This document shows, in pieces, positions 48,001-60,000 of a stretch of DNA of 64,000 bases. Positions within the stretch are counted from its first letter, which is position 1; every line of letters starts with the position of its first letter. The DNA comes from Candidatus Micrarchaeota archaeon. Lineage in GTDB: Archaea; B1Sed10-29. Made by a program: the position numbers. Location of the stretch: NCBI GenBank assembly GCA_964579265.1, contig CAZOFO010000003.1, positions 23,584 to 87,583 of the forward strand. The letters run 5' to 3'.

Positions 48001-51000
48001 GAAGTTCTTTTTCATTTACTTGTAGTTCTGTGATTAATCTATCTACTTTATTAATGTAAAGTACGGGCTTGACTTTTTCTTCTAAGGCTTGTCTTACTAC
48101 TGTTTCTGTTTGAGGCATTACTCCTTCTACTGCTCCCACTACTATTATGCATCCATCTACTGCTCTCATTGCTCTTGTTACTTCTCCTCCGAAGTCCACG
48201 TGTCCAGGTGTGTCTATGAGGTTTACTAGGTATTCGTCATCATCGTATTCGTAAACCATTGATATGTTTGCGCTTTCTATTGTTATTCCTCTTTCTTGTT
48301 CTTCTTCCATTGTGTCCATTACTAGTTCTTCTCCTGCTAGTTCTCCGCTCATTAATCCTGCTCCGTGTATTAAGTTGTCTGATAGTGTTGTTTTACCGTG
48401 GTCGATATGTGCGGCTATTCCTATGTTTCTGATTTTTTCGGTTTCGTGCATTAGGTCGTGGACTCTTTCTGCCATCTTTTCTTTTCTACCCATTTCTATC
48501 TCCTCGTGTTAATTTTTGTTTTTAGAATTTATATTATTTTTCTACTTAGAGCTCTGTGCTATTCTTTCTTCGTTTATTTTCTGTTTTACTGCGAATGAAT
48601 CCGAATCTTCTCTTGATGCTTTGATTAATTCGTCTTTAAGTACTTCTGAGACTGATTTTGTTGATTTGTATGTGTTCATTGCTACTGATTTACCGATGTT
48701 TCTTATTGCGAAGTCTACTCTTCTTTTTGGTGAGGAATCTACTGCTTGGTGTCTTTTGATTCCTCCTCTTTCTATCATTGTTGTTTCTTCTCTTGGTGCG
48801 GATTTTTCTATGGCTCGAACAAGAATTTCTACGGGATTTTTTTCGGTTTCTTCTTCTATTTTTTCGAAGGCTTCTTTTACTTCGTTGTACATTTTTGTTT
48901 TCTTGCCTGTTCCTCCTCTGTGTCTTATTACTTTTCCACTTATTTTTCCTCCGGTTCCTCCTCTCATTAATGTGTTGATTAGCCTTTCTACTATGTGGAT
49001 GCTTGCTTTTACTCTTGGTTCTTTTACTTGTCTTCCTTGGTTATGAAGAGGTGTTTCTGGATCTATATTAATGTATTTTTTTAGTCCTGGGTCTTTTATT
49101 TCTATTTCTTCTGTGTCCCATTTTCCGAATACTTTTTCCATTTTTATCACTTTATCTTTGTGGTTTTTCTACGTTTCCTTTTATTACTTCAAGTAGTGAT
49201 ACTCCGTTTACTTTTATTATTTTGTATTTTACTCCGACCATTGTTCCTACTGGGCCTCCTTGTGCTCCTCCTGCTCCTTCTATTAGTACTTCATCGTGTT
49301 CGTCTATTATGTCTACTGCTCCTTTTTTTGGCATGTGTGCGGTGACTACTTTTCCGTTTTTTAGTAGTTGTACTCTTGCGCATTTTATGATTCCGGAGGA
49401 TGGTTGTTTTTGTTCTATTCCTTTCTTCTGTAGTACTATTCCTCTTGCTTGTGGAGCTCCTTCTAGTGGGTCGTGGAGTTTTCCGGCTTTTCTTCTCATT
49501 CTTTTTACGTAGTTGGAGTCGCTCCACTTTTGTTTTTTTCTCTTTTTCTTGAGTTGTCTTGCTGCGAATTCTCCTGCCATTTTTCTCTACCTCTTGCGTG
49601 TTTGTTTTTTGTGCGTCTGTTTTATATTTATTCTTTATTTTTTATCTTGAAGTGTGATTTATATGATTTTGATGTTTTCTATGTCGAAGTGTCTTTCAGT
49701 GAGTTCTTTTACTTTTTTTACTTTTTTTCCTTTTCTTCCTATTGTTCTTTTTTTGTCTTCTGGATCTACTTCTACTCTTATCTCTCCGTTTTCTTCTGTT
49801 ATTTTTTCTGGTTTTACGGGGTAGAAGAGGTTTTCTATGAATTGTTCGAGATCTTCTGAGTATTTGTATACGTTTATTTCTTTTCCTAGTTTATTTTTTA
49901 CTTTTTCTATCATTGATCCGTTTTTCCCTATTGCTAGGCCTAGGTCTTCGGGTTTTACGAGGATTGTAGCTTCTTCTTTTTCTTTGTTTACTATGCAGTC
50001 CTTTACTGTGGCTCCTGTGATCTCTTCGAATTGGTTTATGGTTTTGATTTCTTCTGCTCCGTATTTTATCATTTTGTTCACTTTGTTCTAGTTTTTTCTG
50101 TGCTCTTTTTTAGTTTTTTTGTTCTATTTCTTTTTTGTCAATGCTTCCGGTGTCTTTTATTGCTACTGTTGTGGTTAGGTGTGGTCTTTTGCATGTTTCC
50201 CCTAATTCTTTGCTTGTTCCTCTGTATCTTCTTATTGGTGTGTCTTCTTTTTGTGCTTCTTCTTTTATTTTGTTTTCTATCTCTATTGGTGTGTTTTGAG
50301 CTATTATTACTATTTTGGCGTTTCCTTTTTTTATTTCTTCTAGTGTTTCTTTTGTTCCGTAGGTTATTTTTCCTGTTCTTATTATCTGTTTAAGTGCTTT
50401 TTCTATTTTCATTTTCTATCACTGTTCTTTTTCTTGTTGTAGGTCTATTTGTAGGTTTACTGATCCTGTTCCGAGTGGTATTGGGTTTCCCACTATTATA
50501 TTTTCTGCTATTCCTTCTAGTTCGTCTTTTTCTCCTTTTTGAGCTGCTTTTAATAGGTGTTTTATTTGTTCTTCGAATGCTGCTCTTGCTAGTACTGATT
50601 TTTTGTCTCCTGATATTCCGTGTCTTCCTATTGCTTGTAGTTCTCCATCTCTTGTTATTGCATCGGCGATTAATAATATGTGTCTTTTGTCAATATTATA
50701 TTCTTCAGTTATTTGACTTAGTTCTTTGAATATTATTTGTCTTGCTGCTTCTATTCCGAGTGTTTTGTATGTTTCTGGTATTGAGTTTGATTCTGTTCTT
50801 TCTGAGTCTATTCCTTCTATCTCTAGTACTTCTTCTAGATTTGATCCGTCTGTGTGTATCTCGTATCTTGTTTCTCCTTCTTCTGTTTCTTTTTCTACTA
50901 GTGTTGCTCTTTCTATTCCTTTTACTCCTTTTATCCTTGTGTTTTCGGTTTTTTCAATGTATCTTCTTAGTGATTTAAGGCTTGATGCGTTTGGTTCGAA

Positions 51001-57000: not shown

Positions 57001-60000
57001 TATGAAGTATCCTCCTGGGTCGTATGGGTCCTCGTTGGCTTCTATTAGTTCTTGTTCGTCCATATCTGATAGGTAGCATAGATTGCTTTTTAGCATTACT
57101 GGTATTTTTCCTGCGAATACTTCGTCTCTGTCCGTTTCTTCACCTTCTTCTTTTAGGGACAGATCCATGTATAGAGAGGCTGCGTAAGTTCTATCTCTTA
57201 GTCTAGCTTCATGTGGAAGTATTTTTGCTCTTGCTCCGTCTGCTTCCGTGGCTCTTGGTTTTTCTGCTCTAATTGAGTTTAGTTGTACGGTTATATCTTC
57301 TTTATCTGTTTCTATTTGATCTTGTTCTTCGATTATCTCGTGAATCCCGTTTTCCATGAATTCATTATATGATTGGATGTGTTGTTGCGCGAGCGGGTTT
57401 TCATCTAGATATTTTTTTGCTACTTCCCATTTATAGGATGACAAGATTCTGCACCTCTTTTGATTAGAGTTATTCTTTTACTACTACTCTGTAATATTTT
57501 GATTTTCCTGCTGTTGGACTTTTTCTTGTGATTTCGAGTACTTCTCCTACTTCTGCTTCTATTGCTTTTGCTACTGGATCGTTTTTATATATTTTTGGGA
57601 GCTCTTCTTTTGTGATTCCGTATTCCTCTAGAACTTTTTCTGCTTCTTCTTCTGATAGAACTTCGTGTTTTGGAACCAATTCGTGATTTAGAAGTGTTTC
57701 TTTATCCACTTTATCTCCTCTTTTATTTTTTAGCCTTCTGTAGCTATTTCTTCTTTTTTGAAATTTTAAGAAGTTTCAGTCTTTTATTCATATTTTCTTT
57801 GGTTTTTATGGTTTTATGAGTCTTTTGAAAGGGAAAGAGGGGGAGGAGGGAAGGGAGTTTGATGTTTCTTCTTTATTGTGGTTTTTCTTTTGCGTTGATT
57901 ATTTCTCTCATTGGGGTTTTTAAGTGTTTCTGTTTTTTTATTTTTTCCGTGTTATATTCTTTTTATCTTTACTTTTTCTTAAATCTTTGCTTCTGGACGG
58001 TTTCTTTTTTGATTTCTTTTTGTTTTTTCTAGGTTTTTAAGAACGTCCCGCTCGGGATTTGAACCCGAGTCCCAGCCTCGACAGGGCTGGATCCTAGGCC
58101 ACTAGACTAGCGGGACTTTTTTGTTCTTTTTGTGAATCTATTTTTTCTAATTGGTTTTTGGGATGGGCCCGCTGAGATTTTCATCTTGGAGGAAGCGTAT
58201 TCCTCTTTTGATTTTGAACTCAGGTCAGGAGCACCCGAAGCTCCCAGCATACCAGGCTAACCCACGGGCCCTTGTGGGTTTTTTGGTTTTTTCCTTTTTA
58301 TTTTTTTCTTATTCGAATATGGTGCCCATTCCTTGTGCTGCTTTTTCTTTTTCCTCTTCTATTGCATCGATTATCTTTTGTTTTTCTTCTCCTTCTTTTT
58401 CTTTTACTCCTTCGTGATCTATTTCTTCTTCGTTTTCTTTGAAGAAATCTTCCGGGGCTTCCACATATAGGTAGCTTCCTTCTTCTTCAAATCCTAATGA
58501 TTCTGAATCTCTTAAGTCGTATCCTTGTCTTTTCCATTGGTTTAGATTGGTTTCGTTTTCTTCTACTACGTCGTCTGCTTCTAAAGCTTTTTTGACGTCT
58601 TTGAGTGCTTTCGGCTCTATTTTGTATACTTTTTCCATTTTTTACACCTCTTTTTTGTTTTCTAGTTTTACTCTTTAATTAGAATGAGTTCATTTCTTTT
58701 TGTGTAGTCCGCGTTTATATTTTATTGTTCGGAGGTATATAAAAATATAGAACGTAATTAGTTTCGGGTGACCTAGATGAAGTTCTTTTACCATGATTCG
58801 TTTGAGAATCACCGAACAGGTTTTAACTGTCCTGAGAATTTCAAGAGGATAGAGAAAGCTCTCTCGTATCTTAGAGATAATCATGAGGAGATAGAACCGG
58901 GAAATAAAGAAGATAGAGTACTTGAGATTCATTCTTCTGATTACGTAGAAAAAGTTAAAGAGTTGTCTGAGACAGAGGGTGTTTCTAAGGTTTCTCCTGA
59001 AGCTTATGTTTCTGAAGGTACTTATGAATCGGCCTGTTACGCTGCTGGAGCTGCGGTGGAAGCTGCAGAATTGGCTTTGGAAAACGAAACTTCTTTTGCA
59101 CTGGTCAGGCCTCCAGGGCATCATGCTCCATTCGGGGGTTTCTGTATATTCAACAATATTGTTGTAGCTGCTGATTATCTGTTGGAAGAGAATAAGAAAG
59201 TAATGATCATTGATACGGATGCACATCATGGTAATGGATCCCAATATTTTCTAAAAAATAGAGAGAACTCTGTTTACTTTTCTATTCACCAACATCCTTT
59301 TTACCCGGGGACTGGAGGTGAATCTGTTGATAATTGCTATAATTATCCTTTGGACTCTGGTTCCGGAGACGAAGAGTTTATTAAGGTAATTGATAATGGA
59401 TTGAGACCTCTTTTGAACTCTTTTGATCCTGATGTGGTCGGGGTTTCAGCTGGATTTGACTCGATGGCTGGTGATCCGGTGACTAATTTAGAGTTAACTG
59501 AGAAGAGCTACGGAGAATTATGTAAATTAATTGAGGATTACAATTCTTTCTTTGTTCTAGAGGGAGGTTATGATTCTGAGAATGTTTTTGAAGGTGTTAA
59601 AGAGATTTCTAATTTCTTTATTTAGGTTCTATCTCTTTTTTTCCTATAGATAGGTCAGGAGATATGATTACTGAGGTCTGTATTTTTTTCTCTTTACCTA
59701 TTCTAAGTTTTTTTAAGTCTCCAAATAGATTTCTCTGGAAAAAAAGTTCTTAACTCCTTTTCCATCTTTTTTCCGGGCAGTATTGGCTTCGAAGAAATAA
59801 TCCTCAGTTGATCTGTCGAAGTTAGGAATCATTTTTTCTACTTTATAGGTGTTTTGGTAGAAAAATGTGAATTGTTGTTTCTGTTTTTCTCTTTCTGGTT
59901 TGTTTTTTTGCTTTGAAAAATATTATTCATCCTGCAGGTATTGGTAGATGCTTTGCACTGCTCTGGATCCTTGGTATGCTGCGGTTATGACTTGTTTGAA

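Follow-up and report, generated by a model that had tools for sequence, protein, structure and literature searches.

TFS allows a stalled RNA polymerase to cut its transcript and restart, and the passages on this factor in PMC7289017 and PMC5715097 name a single archaeon without it, Methanopyrus kandleri. As reported there, M. kandleri combines a complete RNA polymerase of the archaeal type with the lack of a TFS gene, like the genome analysed here, but it is one hyperthermophilic euryarchaeal species, whereas the absence described below spans four phyla and 247 genomes, including Altiarchaeota with genomes of free-living size. The absence in this clade is broader than the one exception named in these passages. 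Cyanobacteria are likewise a large and old lineage without the usual cleavage factor of their domain; they lack Gre, and according to the relevant part of PMC7026648 the intrinsic hydrolysis of their RNA polymerase is high and compensates for it, which is the model that the earlier note put forward. In that case, however, the enzyme is bacterial, the missing factor is non-homologous and the compensation has been measured, whereas for the present genome it would be a prediction from sequence. Eukaryotic RNA polymerases I and III carry built-in TFS-like subunits (A12.2 and C11), as also described in PMC7026648. They, too, work without a free cleavage factor, because the function is part of their enzyme; yet they retain the TFIIS-type C-terminal ribbon, whereas here no reading frame contained one, either on its own or fused to another protein. 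In Sulfolobus, TFS2 lacks the C-terminal ribbon and TFS4 is an inhibitor without the acidic tip, so that the TFS family can shed its catalytic ribbon or switch function, as the section on these paralogues in PMC5715097 describes.

RNA polymerase genes in the window

The genome of 761 kb is 91.45% complete, and the window is a 64,000-nucleotide stretch of one of its contigs. Pfam annotation of the minus strand gave the operon order rpoH-rpoB''-rpoB'-rpoA'-rpoA'' (50419-57709), followed by the genes for L30e, a NusA-type KH protein and S12 (Table 1). These are the same five RNA polymerase genes, at the same coordinates, that the earlier note had placed there, and its statement that the polymerase, Spt4/5 and NusA are present also held on re-annotation. 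Subunits A', A'', B', B'', D, E', F, H, K, L and N all scored above their Pfam cut-offs, with K, F and L encoded elsewhere in the genome, outside the window. Subunit P gave only a weak match: a ribbon of 42 aa scored 21.6 bits, below the cut-off of 24. Judged from these matches, the predicted archaeal RNA polymerase of this genome is complete. Spt5 (154.5 bits) and aCPSF1 (835 bits) were also found, whereas for TFE there was only a weak TFIIE_alpha match, 26 bits, in a winged-helix protein of 116 aa.

Table 1. Coordinates of transcription-related and neighbouring genes in the window
Feature	Position	Strand	Evidence
rpoH (Rpo5), opens the RNA polymerase operon	57470..57709	-	PF01191 RNA_pol_Rpb5_C, 108.1 bits
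rpoB'' (split subunit B, N-terminal half)	55957..57444	-	Rpb2 domains 1, 2, 3
rpoB' (subunit B, C-terminal half)	54133..55938	-	Rpb2 domains 4, 5, 6, 7; domain 6, 391.8 bits
rpoA' (catalytic subunit; NADFDGD motif, funnel, bridge helix)	51586..54111	-	Rpb1 domains 1-5; motif visible in alignment
rpoA'' (trigger loop ...TQMTLKTFHVAG...)	50419..51573	-	Rpb1 domain 5, 143.1 bits; trigger-loop histidine kept
Ribosomal protein L30e, same operon, downstream of rpoA''	50110..50412	-	PF01248, 63.5 bits
NusA-type KH protein, archaeal	49659..50081	-	KH_5, 55.7 bits; KH_2, 48.8 bits
Ribosomal protein S12	49152..49580	-	PF00164, 124.1 bits
rpoD (Rpo3)	24670..25278	-	RNA_pol_A_bac, 54.2 bits; RNA_pol_L, 52.8 bits
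rpoN (Rpo10)	23083..23286	-	PF01194, 106 bits
rpoE' (Rpo7, stalk subunit)	7407..7970	-	SHS2_Rpb7-N, 64.3 bits; S1, 40 bits
spt4 (rpoE'')	7222..7407	-	PF06093, 50.5 bits
tRNA-Asp (GTC), between rpoH and the acidic-protein gene	58044..58116	-	ARAGORN; Rfam tRNA, 54.3 bits
Conserved 109-aa acidic protein (alignment A1), upstream of the RNA polymerase operon	58309..58638	-	no Pfam or NCBIfam family

An alignment of six RpoA sequences showed conserved catalytic aspartates and a conserved trigger-loop histidine. The bridge helix of RpoA' was atypical in all six of these DPANN sequences, and the trigger loop and funnel carried no change particular to the TFS-less lineages that would hint at a compensating polymerase.

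Searches for TFS in this genome and its relatives

None of the TFS models reached its cut-off in this genome. The C-terminal zinc ribbon of the family (PF01096) has four cysteines and an acidic DE hairpin; with this model, the best of 16 candidates reached 12.7 bits, short of the 21-bit cut-off, which reproduces the negative search of the earlier note. The best match to the full-length model TIGR01384 (TFS_arch, cut-off 64.75 bits) was 16.2 bits, and that to the N-terminal Rpb9/TFS-type ribbon (PF02150, cut-off 25.2 bits) was 16 bits, within a rubrerythrin. A custom profile made from 31 DPANN TFS proteins and run unfiltered gave at best 15.1 bits over all 9488 stop-to-stop ORFs of at least 35 aa, and Pfam found no TFIIS/RPB9 ribbon in 20 zinc-ribbon candidates or in any of the 150 called ORFs of 84-135 aa. 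The weak matches to the TFS models were assigned to NMD3, eRF1, SRP54, LysRS, rubrerythrin and a membrane protein. In the DPANN TFS proteins themselves, the QTRSADE motif with its acidic DE hairpin was invariant (10 of 10 in alignment A2). The search of this genome was also negative for the GreA_GreB C-terminal domain (PF01272) and the DksA zinc finger (PF01258), both without a match at E<=1, and for an Elf1-type protein. Three small zinc-ribbon ORFs without an assigned family were seen at C11:4909-5103, C2:62545-62745 and C4:43358-43813.

The phylum is represented by 31 genomes, 11 of them at least 90% complete, and PF01096 gave matches in four archaeal control genomes and in Thermus. Within the phylum it scored 23.9 bits in one genome, where the match proved to be a 125-aa RNase P Rpr2/Rpp21 protein adjoining S19e (Rpr2 59.9 bits, E 3e-16); weaker matches in two others (G004 and G010) were membrane proteins bearing a double zinc ribbon at the C-terminus. 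The TIGR01384 cut-off was reached in none of the 31 genomes, and its weak matches there were the zinc ribbons of ribosomal protein S27ae and exosome Csl4. Thus the absence reported in the earlier note stands, while its count of 30 in 31 becomes 31 in 31, since the exceptional match is RNase P Rpp21.

Outside this phylum, matches were listed down to E<=1e-5, and all genomes were metagenome bins or single-cell assemblies, with four of the six surveys sampling a larger group. TIGR01384 exceeded its cut-off in 0/81 genomes of the Micrarchaeota-seeded phylum, 0/81 of the Iainarchaeum-seeded phylum and 0/54 of the Altiarchaeota-seeded phylum, the last without any match at that E-value in genomes of up to 2.5 Mb. 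Together with the own phylum, TFS was found in 0/247 genomes over four phyla, most of them at least 80% complete. By comparison, among bins of similar genome size and quality, TIGR01384 exceeded its cut-off in 79 of 81 Nanoarchaeota, with TFS detected in 80, and full-length matches were present in 41 of 41 Nanohaloarchaeota at the same E-value, 34 of them above cut-off. Because of the three zero counts in related phyla, the absence reaches beyond one phylum. The description of a TFS-less lineage with a complete polymerase is thereby upheld but not its confinement to a single phylum, and the Iainarchaeum and Micrarchaeia genomes, listed before as two separate cases without TFS, belong to phylum-wide absences. 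An independent scan by sequence pattern, covering 185,579 species genomes, agreed in direction: the best 80 TFS loci were titled Woese- and Nanoarchaeota, Aenigmatarchaeota, Undinarchaeota, Methanosarcinales, Thermoprotei and others, and none of these 80 was titled Micr-, Iain- or Altiarchaeota.

Two of the 81 genomes of the Iainarchaeum-seeded phylum encode a protein (L117, PF02150 24.6 bits, and L119) whose only TFS-like part is an N-terminal ribbon. Their layout resembles that of Sulfolobus TFS2, and they may represent a vestige of TFS or an altered version of it. Sulfolobus, however, also retains the canonical TFS1, whereas no TFS family member was detected in the present genome and phmmer gave no homologue of L117 there (best E 0.71).

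The TFS-less set matches DPANN Cluster 1 (Altiarchaeota, Micrarchaeota, Diapherotrites), a grouping of Dombrowski et al. 2020 as given in the part of PMC7414124 on these clusters. The same source describes the exosome subunit Csl4 as lost in Undinarchaeota and Cluster 2, and priS and priL as separate genes in Cluster 1 and fused in Cluster 2. Csl4 is present in this genome (C5:36445-37014; ECR1_N, S1, a weak EXOSC1 match and a zinc ribbon). In a single-gene RpoB' tree of 28 rows, the group of this genome joined the Iain and Micr rows (SH-aLRT 93), with the Woese and Nanohalo rows apart (98) and the position of Altiarchaeota not settled; this tree has long branches and came from a quick search only.

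The gene neighbourhood of PCNA was also compared. Three Woesearchaeota loci (L142, L095, L147) have the order RpoL, a signal-peptidase-like gene, TFS and PCNA, and in this genome (C5:36445-39613) the order is Csl4, RpoL, Endo_dU, the signal-peptidase-like gene and PCNA. Between the last two lie 123 bases, rich in A, that contain no trace of an ORF. Across the phylum, the signal-peptidase-like gene directly adjoins PCNA in 10 of 26 PCNA loci, including that of a two-contig genome. The syntenic TFS site between signal peptidase and PCNA is empty.

Probable loss of TFS and its alternatives

We consider it likely that TFS is truly absent from every genome searched in the four phyla, most economically through a single ancient loss at the base of DPANN Cluster 1 or close to it. 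Neither chance nor incompleteness can account for the absence, because the genome is 91.45% complete and none of 247 related genomes has TFS. All genomes are bins, and at 66% G+C contig C41 of this one departs from the roughly 35% of the remainder. That incomplete or misbinned assemblies produced the absence is nevertheless hardly conceivable: in bins similar in size and quality, the same search detected TFS in 80 of 81 Nanoarchaeota and in 41 of 41 Nanohaloarchaeota, and the genes flanking the expected site were assembled contiguously. An orthologue that has diverged past detection, for instance through loss of its zinc ligands, is very improbable. DPANN proteins do evolve fast, as the atypical bridge helix illustrates, Sulfolobus has cysteine-poor paralogues (TFS3 keeps just two of eight cysteines, according to the description in PMC5715097), and the N-ribbon-only proteins of the Iainarchaeum-seeded phylum would fit such a course. 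But Nanoarchaeota and Nanohaloarchaeota, which are no less reduced and evolve as fast, retain TFS at 57-106 bits, the unfiltered DPANN-specific profile found nothing above about 15 bits in this genome, the slot beside PCNA is empty, and the large Altiarchaeota genomes gave no match at all at E<=1e-5.

It is also quite unlikely that TFS was never present, the lineages having split off before it arose. Synteny agrees equally with insertion and deletion, bacteria have no TFS homologue, and some root positions discussed in PMC7414124 set Cluster 1, or Micrarchaeota and Diapherotrites, against all other archaea; the root, however, is not strongly resolved according to the same discussion, and a 2026 reconciliation study argues, in the part concerned (PMC13473441), that host-associated lineages are derived. 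The choice between loss and ancestral absence depends on a root for the archaeal tree, without which the two cannot be told apart. An unnamed, non-homologous factor that replaces TFS and, like bacterial Gre, enters the secondary channel to reach the active site appears rather doubtful to us. Gre in bacteria and TFS/TFIIS in archaea and eukaryotes evolved independently, as PMC7289017 states in its passage on cleavage factors, so that such a factor might conceivably have been invented a third time. Of the 150 ORFs of 84-135 aa, about 66 have no Pfam family, and the acidic protein is encoded directly upstream of the polymerase operon. Yet no candidate shows any feature linking it to RNA polymerase, and Gre/DksA-type proteins were not found in the genome. 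The acidic protein differs from the TFS absence in distribution (one weak match in 41 Altiarchaeota-phylum and none in five Iainarchaeum-phylum genomes), and its generic fold and C-terminal tail speak against such a role.

Under the favoured reading of an old loss, the earlier note's claim that the lineage has given up factor-stimulated cleavage is an inference from the missing TFS, Gre, DksA and Elf1, and sequence searches would miss a non-homologous factor. From the lack of TFS, Gre and DksA homologues, the breadth of the absence and the empty syntenic site, all of which were observed, we further infer how the cell may cope. With a complete polymerase that keeps its catalytic residues, backtracked or mis-incorporating enzyme would be rescued by other means. 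The hydrolytic activity of the polymerase itself, weak or enhanced, is one candidate; Spt4/5 together with trailing polymerases or ribosomes might hold backtracking down, and the termination factor aCPSF1/FttA could clear arrested complexes. In tiny, slow-growing genomes, arrest may also cost less. We regard it as a tentative and fairly unlikely idea that Cluster 1 has a new cleavage-stimulating factor, neither TFS nor Gre, or a polymerase with this function built into its own active centre; if true, four phyla would transcribe on a principle undescribed for the archaeal domain.

As a side observation, the conserved acidic protein was found in 27 of the phylum's 31 genomes and in 39 of 41 from the Micrarchaeota-seeded phylum, whereas 41 Nanoarchaeota gave a single weak match. 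Its AF2 model (pLDDT 89.4) predicts a generic ferredoxin-like alpha/beta domain (best Z 6.8). The C-terminal tail is similar to that of the ribosomal stalk protein P1, and this resemblance points to a possible role in translation rather than TFS substitution.

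RNA polymerase genes and the search for TFS

The genes at positions 50419-57709 of the window form a classical archaeal RNA polymerase operon, whose products matched Rpb5_C (108 bits), Rpb2 domains 1-7 and Rpb1 domains 1-5. On the same minus strand, rpoA'' is followed by the genes for L30e, a NusA-type KH protein and S12. Outside the window, the genome studied here (G000, Candidatus Micrarchaeota archaeon B1Sed10-29; 760,915 bases in 41 contigs, rated 91.45% complete) encodes RpoK, RpoF and RpoL according to Pfam. It also encodes Spt5 (154.5 bits), aCPSF1/FttA (835 bits, plus two paralogues) and a candidate TFE, one winged-helix protein with a weak TFIIE_alpha match. 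The polymerase with Spt4, Spt5 and the NusA-type KH protein, as described in the earlier note, was found again by Pfam, with RpoP matched weakly (21.6 bits versus a cut-off of 24). The TBP ORF as called (C10:3193-3465, locus L346) was 91 aa long and contained a single TBP repeat (92.2 bits); it may be incomplete, wrongly called or genuinely of one repeat. The genes rpoK and S17e lay directly downstream. Contig C41 (1737 bases) had a G+C content of 66%, compared with 34-42% in the 40 other contigs, and is probably foreign to the bin.

Coordinates of the transcription genes in the window and of the PCNA-site genes on contig C5 of G000
Feature	Position	Strand	Basis or remark
109-aa acidic protein	window 58309-58638	-	upstream of tRNA-Asp and rpoH; no Pfam/NCBIfam family
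rpoH, rpoB'', rpoB', rpoA', rpoA'' (in that order)	window 57709 down to 50419	-	strong Pfam matches
rpoD	window 24670-25278		Pfam
rpoN	window 23083-23286		Pfam
rpoE'/Rpo7	window 7407-7970		Pfam
spt4	window 7222-7407		Pfam
Csl4	C5:36445-37014
RpoL	C5:37013-37309
Endo_dU	C5:37299-37898
X (signal-peptidase-like)	C5:37853-38749		TIGR02228 signal peptidase I, 44 bits, below cut-off
PCNA	C5:38873-39613

The transcript cleavage factor TFS was searched for in six frames of G000. The best match to the TFIIS ribbon (PF01096) reached 12.7 bits, below the cut-off of 21, and the statement of the earlier note that such a ribbon is undetected in this genome was confirmed. The full-length archaeal TFS model (TIGR01384) gave at best 16.2 bits versus a cut-off of 64.75, and the Rpb9/TFS N-terminal ribbon (PF02150) 16 bits versus 25.2. 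Because reliance on a search pre-filter was to be avoided, a DPANN profile made from 31 TFS proteins (Woesearchaeota/Nanoarchaeota and one Nanohaloarchaeon) was run with all filters off over 9488 stop-to-stop ORFs of at least 35 aa, and the top score was 15.1 bits, for a 65-aa multi-cysteine ORF.

Each weak six-frame match fell within a protein of other identity: Rpp21 (C2:38618-38932; Rpr2, 63.8 bits), S27e (C7:30985-31176), rubrerythrin (C2:56542-57156), NMD3 (C4:11109-11831), eRF1 (C7:9008-10243), SRP54 (C2:33539-34861), LysRS (C2:8061-9656) and a membrane protein of 259 aa that carries zinc fingers (C2:50902-51681). A CxxC...CxxC pattern occurred in 59 short ORFs, mostly antisense junk; the 19 plausible ones, together with one ORF from G006, another genome of the phylum, were analyzed with Pfam. 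The zinc-ribbon ORFs were identified as Rpp21, S27e, L37ae, L40e, L44e, RpoP, Csl4, aIF2-beta and others, with MBF1-like, DUF5679, HVO_2753-type, Mut7-C, ChsH2 and rubrerythrin as further identities, and three G000 orphans had no family. TFS falls in the size range of 84-135 aa, and in none of the 150 called ORFs of that length did Pfam detect a TFIIS or RPB9 ribbon. An orphan zinc-ribbon ORF at C2:62545-62745 (+), 67 aa from stop to stop and 46 aa from methionine, adjoins and runs towards a beta-CASP (aCPSF-type) gene at C2:62779-64197 (-), one of three such genes in this 761-kb genome.

Distribution of TFS in the phylum and across DPANN

According to the earlier note, 30 of the 31 genomes of the phylum lacked TFS and one, G006, had a hit. 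The PF01096 survey of these genomes, of which 11 were at least 90% complete, reproduced this single match of 23.9 bits, but the protein is not TFS: it is a 125-aa RNase P Rpr2/Rpp21 protein (59.9 bits) encoded beside S19e. No genome reached the TIGR01384 cut-off (0/31), and therefore TFS is missing in all 31. The 20-odd weak TIGR01384 matches inspected were S27ae and Csl4 ribbons. Weaker PF01096 matches in G004 and G010 came from membrane proteins (L013, 139-1626 (+), and L012, 1468-2556 (-), respectively), both of which carry a C-terminal double zinc ribbon as well as a very long Lys/Glu-rich linker.

Titled relatives were located via RpoB', and five of them served as seeds. TFS was present in the Woesearchaeota- and Nanohaloarchaea-titled genomes (96 and 61 bits) and missing from those titled Micrarchaeota, Altiarchaeota and Iainarchaeum. 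The GTDB phylum of each seed, named here only by the title of the seed record, was then surveyed with TIGR01384, four of the surveys being even samples of larger groups. At the cut-off, none of 81 genomes of the Micrarchaeota-seeded phylum (0/80 without the unpublished genome G064) and none of 81 of the Iainarchaeum-seeded phylum had TFS (all at least 80% complete). In the Altiarchaeota-seeded phylum, which included genomes of up to 2.5 Mb, it was 0/54, with no match even at E<=1e-5 (at least 70% complete). By comparison, 79 of 81 genomes of the Woesearchaeota-seeded phylum (Nanoarchaeota; at least 80% complete) exceeded the cut-off and 80 matched at E<=1e-5, while the Nanohaloarchaea (at least 70% complete) gave 34/41 and, full-length at E<=1e-5, 41/41. 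Thus, TIGR01384 found TFS in 0 of 247 genomes of the own phylum and the Micrarchaeota-, Iainarchaeum- and Altiarchaeota-seeded phyla. The TFS-less lineage proposed earlier holds for its own phylum but is not limited to it. In an independent pattern scan with a TFS alignment over 185,579 species genomes, the best 80 loci came from Woese-/Nanoarchaeota, Aenigmatarchaeota (three), Undinarchaeota (one), Methanosarcinales, Thermoprotei, Methanofastidiosa and others, and none of these 80 had a Micr-, Iain- or Altiarchaeota title.

Twelve weak matches were listed for the Micrarchaeota set, and the six inspected were all S27ae. The three in the Iainarchaeum set were one S27ae and two proteins with the N-terminal ribbon only; across the phyla, N-terminal-ribbon matches were almost all S27ae or Csl4. 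The two Iainarchaeum-phylum proteins L117 (1492-1770 (+); PF02150, 24.6 bits) and L119 (1183-1683 (-)) have a TFS/Rpb9-like N-ribbon, no C-terminal ribbon and the termini DWEII or DWDLL. A remnant of TFS is one possible reading of the two, an unrelated family another, and no homologue of the L117-type protein was found in G000.

In passages of Dombrowski et al. (PMC7414124), DPANN Cluster 1 comprises Altiarchaeota, Micrarchaeota and Diapherotrites, with Csl4 as one of its traits. The TFS-less set matches this cluster, the lineages with TFS correspond to Undinarchaeota together with Cluster 2, and G000 has Csl4. A quick single-gene RpoB' tree of G000 and 27 of 80 loci (most of the 53 omitted loci bore Thermoplasmata titles), in which branches were long, joined the G000 group with Iainarchaeum- and Micrarchaeota-titled rows (SH-aLRT 93), set Woese- plus Nanohaloarchaea apart from it (SH-aLRT 98) and did not place Altiarchaeota firmly. 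Csl4 and primase characters already serve to split DPANN (PMC7414124, in part); the TFS gap would be a clean gene-content character uniting the own phylum with Micr-, Iain- and Altiarchaeota.

The RpoL-PCNA site

Comparison of G000 with the gene neighbourhood of TFS at 35 loci showed the order RpoL, X, TFS, PCNA at three loci from Woesearchaeota (L095, L142 and L147); a nanohaloarchaeal locus (L096) likewise had X and PCNA close to TFS. In G000, X and PCNA are separated by 123 A-rich bases, in which no frame retains a trace of an ORF. The TFS gene is absent from this assembled site. Of the 26 PCNA loci read in the own phylum, 10 have X directly adjoining PCNA, including that of the two-contig genome G017.

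In another group of phylum genomes, the protein between X and PCNA is not TFS; it is a winged-helix membrane protein. This gene of ~210 codons was found between X and PCNA in one branch (L187, L190, L192 and L200, from G021, G025, G023 and G024) and beside PCNA in L185 (G022) and L188 (G020), loci that showed no homologue of the peptidase. It occupies the site of TFS in Woesearchaeota. Its product combines a winged-helix-like N-terminal region with membrane helices at the C-terminus, and the G020 copy has an extra zinc ribbon.

Candidate substitutes and possible means of rescue of arrested polymerase

Homologues of known secondary-channel factors are absent, with no GreA-, DksA/TraR- or Elf1-type protein found in G000; the pattern is lineage-wide, and the syntenic slot is empty. 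We consider it highly probable that no TFS homologue exists here. A diverged TFS that was overlooked is very improbable, as judged beside the unfiltered ORF scan and the gap at the PCNA site. It is hardly likely that the absence is ancestral instead of a loss. According to a 2018 review (PMC7289017) and the 2017 TFS4 paper (PMC5715097), TFS (TFS1) is conserved throughout the archaea, with Methanopyrus kandleri as the one exception. That an unrelated factor does the job of TFS is unlikely; the 109-aa acidic protein encoded near rpoH was examined in this respect.

At 7 of the 12 loci read, the acidic protein is encoded no more than about 750 bases from rpoH. Its relatives (L205-L226) occur in 27/31 genomes of the own phylum and 39/41 of the Micrarchaeota-seeded phylum (38/40 without G064), with one weak match each in 41 Nanoarchaeota and 41 Altiarchaeota-phylum genomes and none in five Iainarchaeum-phylum genomes. 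It is not co-extensive with the absence of TFS, and therefore we do not propose it as a general substitute. The predicted model, a confident one (pLDDT 89.4), has a ferredoxin-like domain, a common alpha/beta fold, and a long acidic helix. Structure comparisons did not assign the fold, as the top Foldseek match, to PII proteins, had an E of 0.019 and the top VIA match a Z of 6.8, and the family profile matched nothing among PDB sequences better than E 0.0068. The tail ...AAQGMGTIFE, ending in a P1-like G-x-G-x-x-F, resembles that of stalk protein P1 (...AAEGLGSLF), which is encoded separately in G000, so the acidic protein is not P1 itself. P1 tails bind translation GTPases, and the likeness suggests that the acidic protein may do so too.

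If TFS is indeed absent, arrested polymerase would be rescued by some combination of four means. The polymerase's own hydrolysis may act, for which cyanobacteria, where intrinsic hydrolysis can suffice, are the precedent (PMC7026648). Spt4/5 and trailing polymerases or ribosomes may suppress backtracking, aCPSF1-dependent termination may clear arrested complexes, and arrest may be cheap in small, slow genomes.

Among papers that deal with both DPANN and TFS or TFIIS, the passages covered, from those bearing on archaeal transcription, report no loss of TFS. The factor is unmentioned in main-text passages of PMC7414124, its preprint, PMC8407392, PMC8204110 and PMC13257274, and absent from three small PMC7414124 supplements; the large ones, on information-processing genes, may record its absence, which limits the claim of novelty and not the biology. 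If the absence holds, the rule of TFS in all archaea breaks down across an entire deep archaeal branch, and the absence makes an experiment of the open question of what a cleavage factor is needed for and what replaces it. Archaeal RNA polymerase can be reconstituted with recombinant subunits. Micrarchaeota co-cultures are also described (10.1101/2021.04.28.441856; PMC8784108, in part).

RpoA was aligned for six taxa, G000 and the Micrarchaeota-, Iainarchaeum- and Altiarchaeota-titled genomes versus the Nanohaloarchaea- and Woesearchaeota-titled ones. No indel or substitution was limited to the four TFS-less taxa, six sequences being too few for a conclusion. The NADFDGD catalytic motif and the trigger-loop histidine were conserved, and the bridge helices were atypical in all DPANN sequences. 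RpoA is one unsplit frame in the Micrarchaeota-titled (1133 aa; L231 of G033, 520-3918 (-)) and Iainarchaeum-titled (1269 aa; L233 of G035, 319-4125 (-)) genomes; G000 and the Altiarchaeota- and Nanohaloarchaea-titled genomes have it divided between A' and A''. RpoB is whole in the Altiarchaeota-titled locus L021 (a 931-aa frame) and split in G000.
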